A stretch of DNA of 64,000 nucleotides from the NCBI GenBank assembly GCA_014685065.1, contig GCA_014685065.1_4092.2. One strand, written 5' to 3'. Each line of letters starts with the position of its first letter. The stretch's first letter is position 1. The stretch is from a phage. Both the position numbers and the translations under genes were made by a program. The notes beneath the pieces were generated by a model. The model ran no database searches, was not told where the DNA came from, and was given only the letters and a program-made list of their open reading frames with translations. Below are positions 14,511-24,331 of the stretch, piece by piece.

Positions 14511-14849
14511 ATGGAACAATATTTTGAATTAATAAACAAAGTATCATTTTATGTAGTATCTTTGGTTTGGGTGTATTATATGTTTTGCTACATTATTGCA
14601 TTCTTCCGATACACTACTTTATATGAACGTATCTACTATGATGCCCCAATTTCATTCTTGATGTTTTGTGCATGTACGTGGGGAATATTAGAAGTACTGA
14701 TATGTGGGTATAGTACTGATGAATTAAATCTGGTATCGGTCTTGACTGGGTTTTCATTTGTTGTTATGATAGCTGCCGTTCCAGTATGGTTGTTCTTTGT
14801 ACTAGTTCATCGCATTGATATATGGCGTTCTAATATCCCTGAAAAGTAA
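14511..14849 (+). CDS. small membrane protein, paralog family T
   Basis: 2-3 TM helices; shared F(R/K)Y..L..R.Y motif and basic C-terminal tail NIPEK. Confidence 0.55.
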   Translation: MEQYFELINKVSFYVVSLVWVYYMFCYIIAFFRYTTLYERIYYDAPISFLMFCACTWGILEVLICGYSTDELNLVSVLTGFSFVVMIAAVPVWLFFVLVHRIDIWRSNIPEK

Positions 14850-14852
14850 GGA

Positions 14853-15200
14853 TTGGTAATGATTTATTACACTAACATGTTTGCCTATGCTGTTGCTTGC
14901 ATTTACATTGTTTACTTCTTATTCGGTGGAGTACTGTGCTTCTTTAAGTACAAAACATTGTTCAACCGAATGTACCCAAATCATCCAATTGTAGTTGTAC
15001 TTTTGATTCTTTCAGTTTCTCAAATAATCGTTGAAACTACAATGGGTATCAGTAGTGTACATTATAGTTTTGGCACTATAGTAATTATTACTATGCTTAT
15101 TGCATACATTTTAGTACTTGGATATGGTATCTTTGGTAATATTGGTATGAAAATGTATCATCGAATTAAAACATTACGTGATAATCTACCGGAGCGTTGA
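14853..15200 (+). CDS. small membrane protein, paralog family T
   Basis: same architecture; tail NLPER. Confidence 0.55.
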   Translation: MVMIYYTNMFAYAVACIYIVYFLFGGVLCFFKYKTLFNRMYPNHPIVVVLLILSVSQIIVETTMGISSVHYSFGTIVIITMLIAYILVLGYGIFGNIGMKMYHRIKTLRDNLPER

Positions 15201-15201
15201 T

Positions 15202-15546
15202 ATGTATAATTTGAACCTAATCTCATATATTATAACAACACTGTTTACATTCTATGCCTTTGTTGGTATAATCCTACTGTACTTTAAATTTTATAAAGTG
15301 TTTAACCGTTTCTATCCTTCAATGGAGAATGAGTTTTTCTTTGTGTTGTACGTATGTTACACATTAATGGCTACATGTTTCACTGTAGCCGATGGTGTCA
15401 TCGGCATTAAAACTGCTTCCCCAAATGGTAGTACGCTGGTTGCATTTATTCTTACTGGATTCCTTGCAACTTATATTGCCTTCATTACAACATGGTCAGT
15501 GGTTGAATTTCTCTTGCGACTACGAAAGAATATGCCGAATCGATAG
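15202..15546 (+). CDS. small membrane protein, paralog family T
   Basis: ATG 15202 after GGAG; tail NMPNR. Confidence 0.55.
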   Translation: MYNLNLISYIITTLFTFYAFVGIILLYFKFYKVFNRFYPSMENEFFFVLYVCYTLMATCFTVADGVIGIKTASPNGSTLVAFILTGFLATYIAFITTWSVVEFLLRLRKNMPNR

Positions 15547-15555
15547 GAGACATAT

Positions 15556-15810
15556 ATGTTTGCGTTGCGTAATAAAAACACTAAAGAATTATTATGTATT
15601 GATACCGTATGGGATTGTGCGGGATCAACTACAGTTCTTGAAGAAGGAACTGGATATTGCGTGTTTGTTGTACATGATAGGAATGAACTCGAATTATTAC
15701 TTGCTGAGTTCAATGCTGGTGGTAATCCTAACTGTACTGAATACCCTGAGATTATCAATCCAGCACCACCAGGCTCTTATGAAATTCTACAACTGTGGGA
15801 GTTGAAGTAA
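15556..15810 (+). CDS. hypothetical protein
   Basis: RBS GGAGA before ATG. Confidence 0.5.
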   Translation: MFALRNKNTKELLCIDTVWDCAGSTTVLEEGTGYCVFVVHDRNELELLLAEFNAGGNPNCTEYPEIINPAPPGSYEILQLWELK

Positions 15811-16190
15811 TGCGTCAAATGCACAAAGTAACCGAGCTAAACAAGCGTCTGGTTAAACAATCAATGTTCGAGGATAAAGAGTCTTATTATAACTTTAAAC
15901 GTGCAGTAGAGGCTGCTATCCACATTCAGAAGCTTAAAGAACGTGGTTGTATTATTCTGGAAAATGGTTCGGAAGTTGTAACGGATGACTTTAGTGTAGC
16001 GTTTGATGTTTCACCTGACGGGACGCTATCAATGCCCCGCTTAGGAACTGGAAACATGACTGTTTGGGTTGGCTTCACTATGGGGAATGTACCTGGTACT
16101 GTGTACGTAGATGATGCAGAATTGAAAGACAGTTTCAAAAACTTATCTTATCTTGAACCACAATACGCACATGAAATGAATTTATTTTGA
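15810..16190 (+). CDS. hypothetical protein
   Basis: ATG 15810 overlapping previous stop (TAATG). Confidence 0.5.
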   Translation: MRQMHKVTELNKRLVKQSMFEDKESYYNFKRAVEAAIHIQKLKERGCIILENGSEVVTDDFSVAFDVSPDGTLSMPRLGTGNMTVWVGFTMGNVPGTVYVDDAELKDSFKNLSYLEPQYAHEMNLF

Positions 16191-16191
16191 G

Positions 16192-21892: not shown

Positions 21893-22230
21893 TGTTAGAA
21901 TTTTTTAAATCAGATACAATGATTAGTATTACTTTGATTTATCTGTTTGGTTTTTTCTTTTATCATGCACTAGTTGTAGTACTATGGTATTTTAAAAAGA
22001 AAATTGTTTTTAAACTGTATCCAGTGAGGAATTCATCACTAGTTCTTTACACACTTGTTCAAGGTTTGTTTGCAATTGTTGGTCTTATGGCACACTTAAT
22101 TTATTGTGCTAATCCTCACTTGAACTCAATCTCACAATATATTGTATTCTTTGGGTTGTTCATTTGGTTAGTTGTATACTTAATCCATCTCATTATTCAT
22201 GGTAGAGATAAAATTCGCGGAGACTTCTAA
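21880..22230 (+). CDS. small membrane protein, paralog family T
   Basis: LWYFKKKIVFKLY motif. Confidence 0.55.
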   Translation: MGILMLEFFKSDTMISITLIYLFGFFFYHALVVVLWYFKKKIVFKLYPVRNSSLVLYTLVQGLFAIVGLMAHLIYCANPHLNSISQYIVFFGLFIWLVVYLIHLIIHGRDKIRGDF

Positions 22231-22577
22231 TGTTTGAAGCTTATCTTGAGTTTTTAAGGAGTAGTCCAGTTGCACATTCACTTGCAGGGATTATTCTAAC
22301 AACTTATGTATCATTTTGGGTAGTTATGTTTCTAGGATGGTATTTTAAACGACAATTCTATAAACGTAATGGTGAAGATTTTATGAATTCTGTCATTAAT
22401 CAATCGTTGTTTGCATCAACATTGATTGCATGTATTGTAGCAACACTCACAGGAAAGGTACTACCAGCTTTTTCCGCAGTTTACGGCACACTTGGGATGA
22501 TATGTTTAACTTTTATATTGACCATTAAAATTTGTTGTGTTATGATTGAACTTCGAAATAAGATACCGGAGGAATGA
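22230..22577 (+). CDS. small membrane protein, paralog family T
   Basis: GWYFKRQFYKRN motif; tail NKIPEE. Confidence 0.55.
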   Translation: MFEAYLEFLRSSPVAHSLAGIILTTYVSFWVVMFLGWYFKRQFYKRNGEDFMNSVINQSLFASTLIACIVATLTGKVLPAFSAVYGTLGMICLTFILTIKICCVMIELRNKIPEE

Positions 22578-22912
22578 TGGAGTACTTTATTGATTTACTG
22601 CCGTGGTATATGAAAGTTAGTACTTTGTACTATATTATTAGTGCTGGATTCTACTTTCTGATGTGGTTCTTCAAACGACCAATTTCAGTATTCATCGCTG
22701 ATAACATGCTGCAATTAAAATTACACGCATGGTTTGGTATGGCGATGATTATGCCTATTATTCACTACTCAATGATTAGTAGAGGTTTCCGTTCTAATGG
22801 TGAACCAATTGTATTAGTATTCTATTGGGGTTCAACTATTGCATATGTAAGTTTGTTGTTGTTCCCAGTCGTTCATAAATTACGTGCTAAAGTTCCTGAT
22901 GCGAGGTACTAA
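22574..22912 (+). CDS. small membrane protein, paralog family T
   Basis: MWFFKRPISVF motif; ATGA coupling. Confidence 0.55.
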   Translation: MMEYFIDLLPWYMKVSTLYYIISAGFYFLMWFFKRPISVFIADNMLQLKLHAWFGMAMIMPIIHYSMISRGFRSNGEPIVLVFYWGSTIAYVSLLLFPVVHKLRAKVPDARY

Positions 22913-23226
22913 TGGATATCGTAACATTGATTTACACGTTGTATTCATTCTATTTCATTATGTGTTGGGTTGGATTTTTATTTGTACTGAAGATGTTTGA
23001 TTATGTTGAAAAACAGATAAAAGAATTTTGTATTCCTTTTATTGGGTCAACCATTATTAGTATTACTTGTTTGTATTATTTGGTATGTGATCCACCTGAT
23101 AATACAGCAATGATTGACTTGATGTTACTACCAACAACTGTTACTTTTTTATGTAGTCTGATGCCGCCGATTAGCCGTGGACTAACAGAATTTAGACGCA
23201 ATCAAAAGCGTAAACGAGGGATGTAA
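22912..23226 (+). CDS. small membrane protein, paralog family T
   Basis: hydrophobic; basic tail RRNQKRKRGM. Confidence 0.5.
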   Translation: MDIVTLIYTLYSFYFIMCWVGFLFVLKMFDYVEKQIKEFCIPFIGSTIISITCLYYLVCDPPDNTAMIDLMLLPTTVTFLCSLMPPISRGLTEFRRNQKRKRGM

Positions 23227-23594
23227 TGGAAATTGCTCTTATTATCTTAACTGCTATGCTGTTTATTAGTACTGTGGTTATAATTGGTAAATTCTTTTGT
23301 GTATCATTTTTAGAAACGGTATACGATGAAATTGCTGATGATTATGAATTACAAGCCGGATTTTTCATTACGTATTGGCTTAGTTTATTTTGTCTAGTCA
23401 TTGCTTGGATTTTACATATCTTTAAATGGGGTATGGTAGACGGTGATCCTATTATGGCAATTATTGTTCTAGTGTTTGGTATCCTTGGTGGTGCAGTGCA
23501 TAATCTAATGGTTATCTGGCAAACTGTTCAATATGTTTTGGTTCCCTATTTCGAAAAGATGCACAGTACAATTAAAAAACGTAAACGAGGTTAG
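23226..23594 (+). CDS. small membrane protein, paralog family T
   Basis: hydrophobic; tail IKKRKRG. Confidence 0.5.
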   Translation: MEIALIILTAMLFISTVVIIGKFFCVSFLETVYDEIADDYELQAGFFITYWLSLFCLVIAWILHIFKWGMVDGDPIMAIIVLVFGILGGAVHNLMVIWQTVQYVLVPYFEKMHSTIKKRKRG

Positions 23595-23595
23595 T

Positions 23596-23958
23596 ATGAA
23601 CGGGATAGAATTATCTTTCGTTGGTCAATTACTAGTAATGGCGTATACATTTATCTTCTCACTGAATGCATTCGTGTGCATTGGGAAGTACTTCCATAAG
23701 CGACCATTATCAAATATATATGATGTAATCCAAAAGAGATATAGTCCAGCATATACTGTGTTGGGTACAGTATTCAATTTTGGTTTTATTGTATTAATAA
23801 TTGGACTGTTCACATCCTCTTTGAATACAATAACCTTCGGTCTTATGATATGTTCATTGGTATTAGCCGTAATTATATGTTGTTTAGTACTGCACCTTGT
23901 GGTACTATTGTATATAAAGATCTCTGAAATCCACCAACGTTTGGGTATGAGGAAATAA
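23596..23958 (+). CDS. small membrane protein, paralog family T
   Basis: ATG 23596 after ACGAGG. Confidence 0.5.
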   Translation: MNGIELSFVGQLLVMAYTFIFSLNAFVCIGKYFHKRPLSNIYDVIQKRYSPAYTVLGTVFNFGFIVLIIGLFTSSLNTITFGLMICSLVLAVIICCLVLHLVVLLYIKISEIHQRLGMRK

Positions 23959-23959
23959 T

Positions 23960-24331
23960 ATGAGTTACCGTGAGATATTTTCCATTATTTCAATTATTAT
24001 GTTCAGTACTGGAACACTGGTATGGTTATTATACTTCTTCTGTATTAATCCAGTGTATAATATGTTATGTAATATTAAATCAAGTGCCGGATATATCACT
24101 TTTATGGTCTTTATGGGATATTATTGTCTAAGCATTTTAGGTGTTGTTTTGGTTGTTATATTTGATGTGGGACCAAATAGTGATGGTATGGAAATACATG
24201 AATTAATAACCATGTTTGGATGTATGATACCAACAGCACTACTGTTTGTAGCTACTGGTAGTGGATTGATAAAATTATATAATTATTTAAAATCCATTCA
24301 TAATTCCATTCATAATAAGCGTATGTCATAA
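23960..24331 (+). CDS. small membrane protein, paralog family T
   Basis: hydrophobic; tail HNKRMS. Confidence 0.5.
   Translation: MSYREIFSIISIIMFSTGTLVWLLYFFCINPVYNMLCNIKSSAGYITFMVFMGYYCLSILGVVLVVIFDVGPNSDGMEIHELITMFGCMIPTALLFVATGSGLIKLYNYLKSIHNSIHNKRMS

Follow-up and report, generated by a model that had tools for sequence, protein, structure and literature searches.

The question raised by this locus is whether eleven small phage genes, lying in a cluster of three and a cluster of eight, encode a single family of membrane proteins and, if so, what such a family would do. The stretch of DNA that we analysed (64,000 nt, hereafter the window) comes from an Asteriusvirus jumbo phage and shares 99.4% identity with the E. 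coli phages G17 and Sharanji. A first-pass annotation had reported eleven genes for 104-123-aa proteins in two clusters, and the gene models bear this out: all eleven ORFs (m1 to m11) are on the + strand and match annotated CDSs of phage vB_EcoM_G17 (G17_00106-00104 and G17_00090-00083). Five starts were moved to an ATG with a Shine-Dalgarno sequence: m2 (from TTG 14853 to 14859), m3 (from GTG 15178 to 15202), m5 (21892), m7 (22577) and m10 (from 23533 to 23596). With these corrected starts, cluster 1 comprises m1 (14511..14849, 112 aa), m2 (14859..15200, 113 aa) and m3 (15202..15546, 114 aa), and the eight-gene array comprises m4 (21551..21892, 113 aa), m5 (21892..22230, 112 aa), m6 (22230..22577, 115 aa), m7 (22577..22912, 111 aa), m8 (22912..23226, 104 aa), m9 (23226..23594, 122 aa), m10 (23596..23958, 120 aa) and m11 (23960..24331, 123 aa).

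Kyte-Doolittle profiles gave three hydrophobic segments in each of the eleven proteins, which narrows the two or three helices proposed earlier to three; the weakest hydrophobicity was that of m7 (peaks 1.40-1.85). For orthologues, the depositors likewise give three TMDs, by TMHMM for Muenster and by TMHMM and Phobius for GAP32. Over 59 family members, Lys and Arg total 26 in the N-terminal tail, 181 in loop 1, 29 in loop 2 and 275 in the C-terminal tail, and this strongly positive-inside distribution points to an N-out/C-in topology. In addition, the AF2 model of m6 (pLDDT 74) contains three long helices and a short loop helix. By sequence rules, these are thus predicted to be small inner-membrane proteins with three TM helices, N-out/C-in.

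Pairwise identity among the eleven proteins is just 10-25%, and phmmer joins only m1-m2-m3, m4-m5 and, weakly, m1-m11. The match between m4 and m5 (E 1e-30) marks m4 as an apparent recent duplicate of m5. Hence the single family proposed earlier is not visible in pairwise comparison, whereas it is between ortholog-group profiles. With hhalign, we obtained E values of 9e-6 for G123-G45, 2e-6 for G45-G6 and 6e-11 for G6-G7; the G6 hub was further linked to G8 (2e-5) and G10 (6e-6), and among the type B groups described below G9 was linked to G10 (9e-6) and G11 (4e-7). As a control, reversed sequences gave a best E of 0.017. Of the 266 ORFs of 50 aa or more in the window, the group HMMs match just these eleven, and sequences that bridge the family are present in Hallingskeid and in metagenomes. 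Profile-profile comparison (E about 1e-5 to 6e-11) thereby unites all eleven proteins in one family, and hydrophobicity, profile links, motif and topology together support the earlier view of an amplified family of small phage membrane proteins.

The first-pass annotation had also described a conserved (W/L)(Y/F)FK(R/K)...F motif. Its Phe, where TM1 ends on the cytoplasmic side, is present in 43/43 aligned members, but the flanks vary: position -2 is W, K or Y, position -1 is Y, F or L, and at position +1 there are 20 K, 11 C and 4 H among the 43. The residue after TM3 is Arg in 23 members and His in 20, i.e. Arg/His in all 43. The Phe is missing from distant GAP32, BF and XbC2 members. A Phe with basic residues at the cytoplasmic end of a helix might not form a binding site but act as a general signal for insertion or topology. 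The basic tails NIPEK, NLPER, NMPNR, KIRGDF and KRKRG are present as quoted earlier; where a family gene lies downstream, the last 3-5 codons also hold the Shine-Dalgarno sequence of that gene, so part of the tail similarity is dictated by the nucleotide sequence.

Two subtypes can be recognised from these motifs. Type A proteins (m1-m7) have as their signature W-[YF]-F-K-[RK] behind TM1, with R-x-K-[IL]-P towards the C-terminus, and the individual pairs are FFRY and WRSNIPEK in m1, FFKY and LRDNLPER in m2, YFKF and LRKNMPNR in m3, WYFKRK and ARNNFKWGF in m4, WYFKKK and GRDKIRGDF in m5, WYFKRQ and LRNKIPEE in the hub member m6, and WFFKRP and LRAKVPDARY in m7. The signature of type B (m9-m11) is G-K-[FY]-F-[CH] following TM1 together with H-x-x-I-x-x-K-R close to the C-terminus, and the pairs are GKFFCV and MHSTIKKRKRG in m9, GKYFHK and IHQRLGMRK in m10, and LYFFCI and IHNSIHNKRMS in m11. 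By its motifs (GFLFVL and FRRNQKRKRGM), m8 appears intermediate between the types, and is type B-like. This two-subtype split, as well as the linkage to an NrdC.10-like NTPase described below, was absent from the earlier annotation and is new here.

Searches of Pfam, NCBIfam, PADLOC and PDB gave zero matches to the family. We found 33 matches among 1.84 billion cluster representatives, nearly all of them family-sized, and 24 among 5.8 billion clusters; those with a traceable source come from jumbo-phage genomes or metagenomic contigs. In PHROGs, for which the scan covered m1-m4 and m6-m11, eight proteins (m1, m2, m4, m6-m9 and m11) matched at E 1e-51 to 1e-70, among them m1 to 19285, m4 to 19454, m6 to 19046, m7 to 27396, m8 to 33258, m9 to 26405 and m11 to 27618, and weak matches linked m3 to 19285 (3e-4) and m10 to 26405 (0.046). 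The GAP32 array proteins correspond to PHROGs 16874 and 13405, and both m6 (1e-5) and m8 also match phrog_16874. These searches restrict the family to the Rak2-like jumbo phage clade.

The arrangement of the genes bears on when the proteins would be made. A cassette of terminator hairpin and sigma70-type promoter occurs in five copies on the + strand, and one copy heads each of the two operons. The first (13460..13495, TTGACT-N18-TATGAT, with TG) heads the m1-m3 operon, which opens with a T7 gp0.7-like protein kinase gene (13524..14165, +; phrog_15752, E 5e-92, and so annotated in G17); a terminator is annotated by G17 at this cassette. The second (20651..20686, with the consensus TTGACT-N18-TATAAT and TG) heads the NTPase and the array, and is kept with compensatory stem changes, across genera, in 7/8 relatives checked (the exception being Muenster). 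Every family gene has a Shine-Dalgarno sequence at its start codon, and the junctions are -1 or +1 nt, so that the eight-gene array reads as a translationally coupled operon behind the cassette and the NTPase. In the 65-nt gap 5' of m4, a weaker sigma70-like site (21493..21521, +; TTGACA-N17-TACTAT, a consensus match only, with a hairpin in the spacer) is a possible internal promoter candidate. A hairpin (ATCCAGTACT-TAAT-AGTACTGGAT, 24337..24360) closes the array; it is a plus-strand terminator in the G17 annotation, although its T-run is on the minus-strand side. In the paper on phage CBB, RpoD-like promoter regions of short ORFs in Rak2-like phages were read as early host-takeover regions (PMC5259590). 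Since tight coupled arrays stand in operons with consensus promoters of the host (sigma70) type, joint production of the proteins early in infection is most likely, with the timing read from promoter sequences.

Taken together, these results are best explained by an ancient, clade-restricted family of three-TM inner-membrane proteins, of two subtypes and synthesised together early, with a role in host takeover at the membrane, to which we assign a probability of about 0.4. The proteins would insert into the host cytoplasmic membrane and act there during takeover; most plausibly, they would alter the membrane so as to exclude or resist competitors, or would neutralise membrane-based responses of the host. 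The conserved residues on the cytoplasmic face (Phe after TM1, Arg/His after TM3) would make a contact common to all members, and each paralogue would owe its specificity to its divergent helices and periplasmic loops. A role in superinfection exclusion, or in modulating functions of the host membrane, is plausible. Searches for homology to holin, antiholin, Imm or Sp families, and to proteins of exclusion, immunity or anti-defence, found none. T4 Imm and Sp are similarly small inner-membrane proteins from early regions of T4-related phages, but they have no detectable homology to the family and both lack its F ... R/H pair of motifs. Imm has two TMs and Sp one, and both are single-copy. In the relative Hallingskeid, the equivalent early region holds an Imm-like gene.

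Directly 5' of the array lies the gene of a 256-aa P-loop NTPase (20715..21485, +; phrog_1250), which has a Walker A P-loop and ~40% identity to T4 NrdC.10 over ~80% of the protein. T4 NrdC.10 is likewise a P-loop protein, and its gene is conserved among T4-like phages, but the first ~76 profile positions are missing from the jumbo version, and a three-TM array behind an NrdC.10 homologue was seen in Rak2-like jumbo phages only. In all of those examined (Asteriusvirus, Alcyoneusvirus, Hallingskeid, Munch, GAP32, Serratia BF and XbC2, with hosts in Escherichia, Klebsiella, Salmonella, Cronobacter, Serratia, Erwinia and Xanthomonas), the NTPase is followed by 4-10 family genes, and one metagenomic contig holds the NTPase and then one family member, where the contig ends. 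An alternative that we consider unlikely is that the paralogues are fixed subunits of a hetero-oligomeric A+B inner-membrane complex, working with, or assembled or regulated by, the soluble NTPase, as a phage-specific machine and not as independent effectors. The constant gene order, in which the stop and start codons of NTPase and array often overlap or abut, argues for it, as does the near-stoichiometric synthesis implied by tight junctions with the Shine-Dalgarno sequence inside the upstream gene. Also in its favour, the complete arrays of Asteriusvirus, Alcyoneusvirus and Hallingskeid all hold both types, A before B; between Asteriusvirus and Alcyoneusvirus, most paralogues are matched one to one by orthologues in conserved order (23-36% identity); and the universal residues lie on the cytoplasmic face, within reach of a soluble partner. 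However, NrdC.10 homologues occur in ~1,300 phage records, mostly T4-like, and no family member was found beside the homologue in JS98, the sole T4-like locus examined, which indicates that the NTPase can do without the family. Cluster 1, like some single or paired members in metagenomes, stands apart from any NTPase, and in Asteriusvirus the 65-nt gap with its promoter-like site separates NTPase from array. Copy number is plastic, with 4 array genes in Munch, 10 in Hallingskeid and 4-11 family copies per genome; duplications are lineage-specific (m4/m5, G8 in Turkey5, G6 in RaK2), and G10 is not recognisable in RaK2.

The same variability in copy number would suit a family with no coordinated function, whose genes would be small hydrophobic ORFs under weak constraint, kept and duplicated in an early region that tolerates them; the linkage to the NTPase would then reflect nothing more than inherited gene order. 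Divergence is fast (between orthologues in RaK2 and here, identity is 23-36% for the family but 70% for the NTPase), dN/dS for m4-m11 versus ph0011 and BF17 is 0.09-0.51 compared to 0.02 for the NTPase, and the identities of NTPase and array are discordant between phages, indicating a mosaic region. Nevertheless, omega is below 1 for every gene, which marks purifying selection, weaker than that on the NTPase. Despite ~15% overall identity, two residues persist in all 43 members, translation signals are intact in every member, and the array stays behind the NTPase in every Rak2-like phage examined, from Escherichia to Xanthomonas hosts, while neighbouring genes change, which makes the absence of a coordinated function improbable.

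Class I holins (lambda S105, P2 Y) are proteins of ~100-120 aa that span the membrane with three TM helices in an N-out/C-in orientation and end in a charged C-tail in the cytoplasm, and the family shares size, topology and a charged, mostly basic tail with them. That the proteins are holin-like pore formers or antiholins whose copies tune lysis timing is nevertheless very doubtful, and the family is probably not a lysis holin, because its operons begin at consensus sigma70 promoters of early type, in regions read as early (PMC5259590), with no T4-type late promoter motif seen by eye upstream of the array; because there are 4-11 copies per genome; because the neighbours are a kinase and an NTPase and no endolysin, the characterised lysozyme of UE-S1 being ORF 534 and its array ORFs 195-202; and because Pfam and PHROG holin families are unmatched even at E up to 1, while in fEgEco12, for which an annotated holin is reported, every array gene carries the label hypothetical.

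The tandem arrangement recalls, by analogy, the multigene families of eukaryotic large DNA viruses (for instance ASFV MGF110/360 and poxvirus host-range genes), which are likewise tandem, fast-diverging paralogues in terminal or early regions of very large genomes, with copy-number variation between strains. The phage array is unrelated to them in sequence and host, and its mostly one-to-one orthologues are less typical of accordion-like expansions; such ordered orthologues across genera are no less expected of fixed complex subunits than of an arsenal for an arms race. Our best guess is that the proteins serve early takeover of, or exclusion at, the inner membrane, possibly as hetero-oligomers. 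In PHROGs, these proteins are divided into at least nine seemingly unrelated families labelled 'unknown function' or 'membrane protein', whereas here they form one superfamily, in which families 19285, 19454, 19046, 27396, 33258, 26405 and 27618, together with 16874 and 13405, are now joined by a common topology, motif and operon context.

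Bases 14000-25000 of the window are 99.4% identical, with 100% query coverage, to the Escherichia phages vB_EcoM_G17 (MK327931) and Sharanji (OR545507), which are jumbo myoviruses; G17 belongs to the genus Asteriusvirus, within the Rak2-like group. The eleven small membrane-protein genes reported in the first-pass annotation were all found on the + strand, as m1-m3 (cluster 1, 14511-15546) and m4-m11 (the eight-gene array, 21551-24331), and all of them are annotated as hypothetical proteins in G17 (G17_00106-104 and G17_00090-083). For five genes the longest ORF starts too early; the annotated ATGs are at 14859, 15202, 21892, 22577 and 23596, each of the five has a Shine-Dalgarno sequence 5-13 nt upstream, and once the starts are corrected to these ATGs the products have the claimed length of 104-123 aa.

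Pairwise identity among the eleven proteins is 10-25%, and phmmer linked m1, m2 and m3 to one another, m4 to m5 (E 1e-30) and, weakly, m1 to m11, with no other links. PHROGs splits the members into seven families (19285, 19454, 19046, 27396, 33258, 26405 and 27618), every one of unknown function, with a few weak cross-matches. In the PHROG scan, which covered all members except m5 (tied to m4 by the phmmer match), m1, m2, m4, m6, m7, m8, m9 and m11 matched at E 1e-51 to 1e-70, m3 matched 19285 weakly (3e-4), and m10 gave a weak match (0.046) to the sister PHROG 26405. Syntenic arrays were gathered from RaK2, Turkey5, ph0011, BF17, A4 and Muenster, one alignment was made per orthologue group (G123 for m1-m3, G45 for m4/m5, G6 to G11 for m6 to m11), and the group profiles were compared by hhalign. 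The links form a connected graph: G123-G45 (E 9e-6), G45-G6 (2e-6), G6-G7 (6e-11), G6-G8 (2e-5), G6-G10 (6e-6), G9-G10 (9e-6, which confirms the membership of m10) and G9-G11 (4e-7). As a negative control, column-reversed alignments were compared, and the best of these reached E 0.017. Run against the 266 ORFs of 50 aa or more in the window, the group HMMs matched only the eleven; other hydrophobic ORFs, such as those at 17049-17300 and 18573-18767, gave no match to them. These two small ORFs (+; 83 aa and 64 aa), which share the early-type region with the family genes, fall outside the family, and the first of them, scanned against PHROGs, had no match there. Distant members from Erwinia phage Hallingskeid and from metagenomic contigs match several group HMMs simultaneously and thus bridge the groups. 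In 43/43 aligned sequences TM1 has a Phe at its cytoplasmic end, F39 in m6; this Phe is missing from the distant GAP32, BF and XbC2 members, and the position just after TM3 is Arg (23/43) or His (20/43). Type A proteins (m1-m7) carry W-[YF]-F-K-[RK] after TM1 and R-x-K-[IL]-P-[DE] near the C-terminus, type B proteins (m9-m11) carry G-K-[FY]-F-[CH] and H-x-x-I-x-x-K-R, and m8 is intermediate. Taken together, the connected profile graph, the specificity of the HMMs, the bridging members and the shared residues support homology statistically, which bears out the earlier grouping of the eleven and shows, at the level of profiles, a single ancient family with two subtypes. Two phi92 genes, mentioned in notes of the ph0011 record as 'Phi92_gp231' and 'Phi92_gp233', were rejected as relatives; they encode 121 and 75 aa in an unrelated context.

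Nucleotide-level similarity survives in only one pair, m4/m5 (75% over 130 nt in a direct-repeat check, 21551-21679 vs 21892-22020). Since this similarity is kept and BF17-type phages have a single copy in place of the pair, m4/m5 is a recent lineage-specific duplication, and the confinement of DNA repeats to m4/m5 argues that the family was not recently amplified and that its remaining members are old.

Two or three hydrophobic helices per protein had been proposed; Kyte-Doolittle analysis found three in 11/11, the weakest being those of m7. Across 59 family members, Lys and Arg number 26 in the N-tail, 181 in loop 1, 29 in loop 2 and 275 in the C-tail, a clear positive-inside signal that predicts an N-out/C-in topology. 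In the Muenster record, 5/8 genes are annotated by the depositors as 'TMHMM: 3 TMDs; N-out, C-in', and the depositors of GAP32 annotate '3 transmembrane domains shown using TMHMM 2.0 and Phobius'. For m6, an AF2 model based on a family alignment of 18 sequences (pLDDT 74) shows helices at 13-38, 55-73 and 80-110 and a short loop helix at 42-53; a Foldseek search with this model gave 0 matches in the PDB and only family members in BFVD. By these sequence rules, an inner-membrane topology is clearly predicted.

The array m4-m11, and not m1-m3, lies directly downstream of a 256-aa P-loop NTPase (20715-21485, +) with the Walker A motif GAPGVGKT and weak AAA/STAND matches in Pfam. This protein matches phrog_1250 (E 2e-103) and is ~40% identical to T4-type NrdC.10, and we assign it on sequence similarity to the T4 NrdC.10 family, homologues of which occur in ~1,300 phage records, mostly T4-like. 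Every Rak2-like jumbo phage examined has an array of ~105-130-aa 3-TM genes directly 3' of the NTPase, with 7-8 family genes in the Asteriusvirus genomes (the window, ph0011, BF17, Turkey5 and A4), 7 in RaK2 and Muenster (Klebsiella), together with one unlinked 3-TM gene, 10 in Hallingskeid (Erwinia), 4 in Munch (Salmonella), 6 in GAP32 (Cronobacter), 5 in Serratia phage BF and 7 in XbC2 (Xanthomonas); the CMSTMSU locus, apparently frameshift-ridden, was left out. In the metagenomic contig L014 the NTPase stop overlaps the start of one member, and the contig ends soon after. Many distant array members were recognized by the family HMM or a group HMM, and phrog_16874, matched by m6 and m8 as well, takes in the GAP32 members. 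These comparisons show a fixed linkage to the NrdC.10-like NTPase in no fewer than six lineages, whose hosts range from Escherichia to Xanthomonas. Cluster 1 is a type A satellite behind a kinase, in 1-3 copies, and was seen only in Asteriusvirus-type phages of E. coli and Salmonella. The gene next after nrdC.10 in the T4-like phage JS98 encodes a soluble protein that is not a family member. T4-type NrdC.10 is longer than the jumbo-phage NTPase, and the idea that it carries a membrane anchor replaceable by the array was rejected, as its N-terminal extension is soluble (maximum KD 1.24) and without a hydrophobic anchor. A single-sequence AF2 model of the NTPase (pLDDT 36) was discarded. The NTPase is 97% identical to those of BF17 and A4 and 59% to those of ph0011 and UE-S1, whereas the array genes are 73-90% identical to those of ph0011 and 27-67% to those of A4, a discordance that implies recombination at a point between NTPase and array. 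A soluble protein of ~255-265 aa (phrog_27654), absent in the window, is inserted mid-array in GAP32 (6979-7743 of its locus L020), Serratia BF (L021, 6633-7433) and XbC2 (L022, 7902-8684); this protein and the 104-aa RaK2 ORF308 had no Pfam match, and their PHROG matches were only 'unknown'.

A 36-nt cassette, AAAGGGTTGACTTCGGTCAGCCCTTTTTGCTATAAT, joins a terminator-like hairpin to a consensus sigma70 promoter (TTGACT-N18-TATAAT with an extended TG), the -35 box being included in the hairpin. It is repeated at 13460-13495, 17955-17990, 19237-19272 and 20651-20686, with its promoter part only at 7354-7383; every copy lies on the + strand, against an expectation of none by chance. The cassettes divide the + strand region into what are predicted to be short early-type operons. 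The operon of the 13460 cassette comprises a T7 gp0.7-like kinase, a 93-aa ORF, m1-m3 and six further small genes, and that of the 20651 cassette comprises the NTPase and m4-m11 and ends in a hairpin (24337-24360). This cassette also lies ~58 nt 5' of the NTPase start in RaK2, Turkey5, ph0011, UE-S1, BF17, A4 and Hallingskeid, and the relatives' cassettes show compensatory stem changes (TTGACTTCGGTCA, TTGACGAAAGTCA, TTGACTTTAGTCA and TTGCCAATCGGCA). In phage CBB, RpoD-like promoters clustered among short ORFs were interpreted as an early host-takeover region, and late genes bear a T4-like ATAAATA motif (PMC5259590). From the sigma70 cassettes and this reading of CBB, we infer that the array operons are probably transcribed early by host RNA polymerase.

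The neighbours of the family genes are the kinase, the NTPase, DenV and an HNH endonuclease. The kinase gene (13524-14165, +; phrog_15752, E 5e-92) heads the m1-m3 operon, and Munch and Hallingskeid have a homologue 5' of their NTPase region. A few genes past the kinase in Hallingskeid (634-909 of its locus L010), a 91-aa hydrophobic gene is annotated as a 'superinfection immunity protein', at a position roughly that of m1-m3 in the window. An HNH/homing-endonuclease-like ORF of 372 aa (19528-20646, +; phrog_559) lies between two promoter cassettes; it is missing at this site in ph0011 and UE-S1, where denV is far nearer the NTPase, which suggests a mobile insertion. Convergent - strand genes start just past the array (25493-26662, -, and beyond), as they also do in Munch, BF, ph0011 and UE-S1, and the counterparts of these genes in relatives carry the labels RCC1-like 'regulator of chromosome condensation' or 'DNA condensation protein'. 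The sign of the GC skew reverses twice, near 24-26 kb and near 41-42 kb.

Five of the array junctions have a distance from stop to next start of -1 nt and three have one of +1 nt; the coupled junctions (+ strand) are at 15200/15202, 21892, 22230, 22577, 22912, 23226, 23594/23596 and 23958/23960. The Shine-Dalgarno sequence of the next gene is encoded in the last 3-5 codons of the preceding family gene, within PER (ccGGAGcgt), PEE (ccGGAGGAa), RGDF (cgcGGAGac), KRG (aaacGAGGt) and MRK (atGAGGAaa). The similarity of the extreme C-termini is therefore partly imposed by the nucleotide sequence, and these residues are under a double constraint, from the function of the protein and from coupled translation. 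The shared basic tail of the first-pass annotation stands as a similarity, part of which belongs to the Shine-Dalgarno sequence of the next gene. The universal Arg/His after TM3 lies upstream of that stretch and is unaffected.

Profile searching across 5.8 billion protein clusters yielded 24 matches; HMMER, run exhaustively on 1.84 billion cluster representatives, yielded 33. The matches are 89-127 aa long, with two exceptions, a 56-aa fragment and a 1,133-aa protein whose partial match is spurious. The traceable ones belong to jumbo-phage genomes or to short metagenomic contigs, again in tandem, with five family genes in a row in each of two contigs (L017 and L018). A tblastn search with the concatenated Hallingskeid array, limited by the low-complexity filter and by divergence, returned Hallingskeid itself and one EJP2 gene only. 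Scans of the members against Pfam, NCBIfam and PADLOC gave nothing above noise, and a PDB sequence-profile search gave nothing significant (best E 0.058); the 100-aa chain 4x5m, which we take to be a 3-TM SemiSWEET, was rejected at E 0.21 as not significant. GenBank and PHROGs already list the genes, under the labels hypothetical or 'membrane protein', and no description of the family or its genes was found in the literature searched.

We propose that the proteins would be co-produced early and then inserted into the host cytoplasmic membrane, where they would act during takeover. Their role may be to alter the membrane against competitors or against host membrane-based responses, a reading to which we give a probability of about 0.4 and which is favoured by the timing, the presence of a gp0.7-like kinase nearby, a variable copy number and rapid divergence. 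The family genes diverge fast, with 23-36% identity to their RaK2 orthologues compared to 70% for the NTPase. The Imm-like gene of Hallingskeid sits in the early region corresponding to that of the window; it did not match the family HMMs, and the T4 Imm family (PF14373) gave no Pfam match to the members.

The main rival, in which the proteins form a fixed hetero-oligomeric complex coupled to the NTPase, is unlikely though worth weighing: one-to-one orthologues are retained in order, types A and B co-occur, translation is coupled and conservation lies on the cytoplasmic face, whereas copy number is plastic, satellite clusters occur without the NTPase and the NTPase exists independently in T4-like phages. 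This complex and the alteration of the membrane are mutually compatible. A doubtful, further-reaching reading is that type A and type B proteins would build a hitherto undescribed hetero-oligomeric inner-membrane machine of the Rak2-like phages, assembled early and coupled to the NrdC.10-like NTPase. Such a putative machine might serve as an ATP-dependent gate or barrier for DNA or ion traffic, in superinfection exclusion or defence evasion, or as a membrane platform for the replication or assembly of the giant phage. That the genes have no coordinated function is rather improbable, since dN/dS is below 1 for every gene (0.09-0.51 for m4-m11 vs ph0011 and BF17; 0.02 for the neighbouring NTPase), two residues are conserved in all 43 sequences and the module is retained across genera; m4-m11 are under selection. 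A holin or antiholin role is highly improbable: the family shares with class I holins a generic architecture only (three TMDs, N-out/C-in, a charged cytoplasmic C-tail and a size within ~90-130 aa), whereas those holins lie by endolysin or spanin genes in a late lysis cassette and the family lies in sigma70-headed operons with other neighbours and a probable early timing; promoter type and copy number both conflict with such a role, no holin family was matched (Pfam E up to 1; PHROGs up to 0.1), and the array in UE-S1 (ORFs 195-202) is far from the lysozyme (ORF 534).

What is new is the merging of at least seven 'unknown' PHROG families, together with two in GAP32-type phages, into one superfamily, its topology and two diagnostic residues, its split into types A and B, and the conserved, probably early operon of cassette, NrdC.10-like NTPase and 3-TM array across Rak2-like jumbo phages. 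The family is akin to small early phage membrane proteins and to viral multigene families. Rak2-like jumbo phages (Asteriusvirus, Alcyoneusvirus, Mimasvirus, Eneladusvirus and relatives) are widely isolated as therapy candidates, and to our knowledge most of their genes are without known function. The family is a well-defined, small and cheap experimental target of ~3.7 kb. If it has no measurable effect, this would be informative on the load of weakly selected coding sequence in jumbo genomes. If it acts in exclusion, defence evasion or membrane takeover, it would represent a new class of phage membrane effector, and a joint action of the proteins and the NTPase, if it exists, would offer the first functional clue to the widespread T4 NrdC.10.
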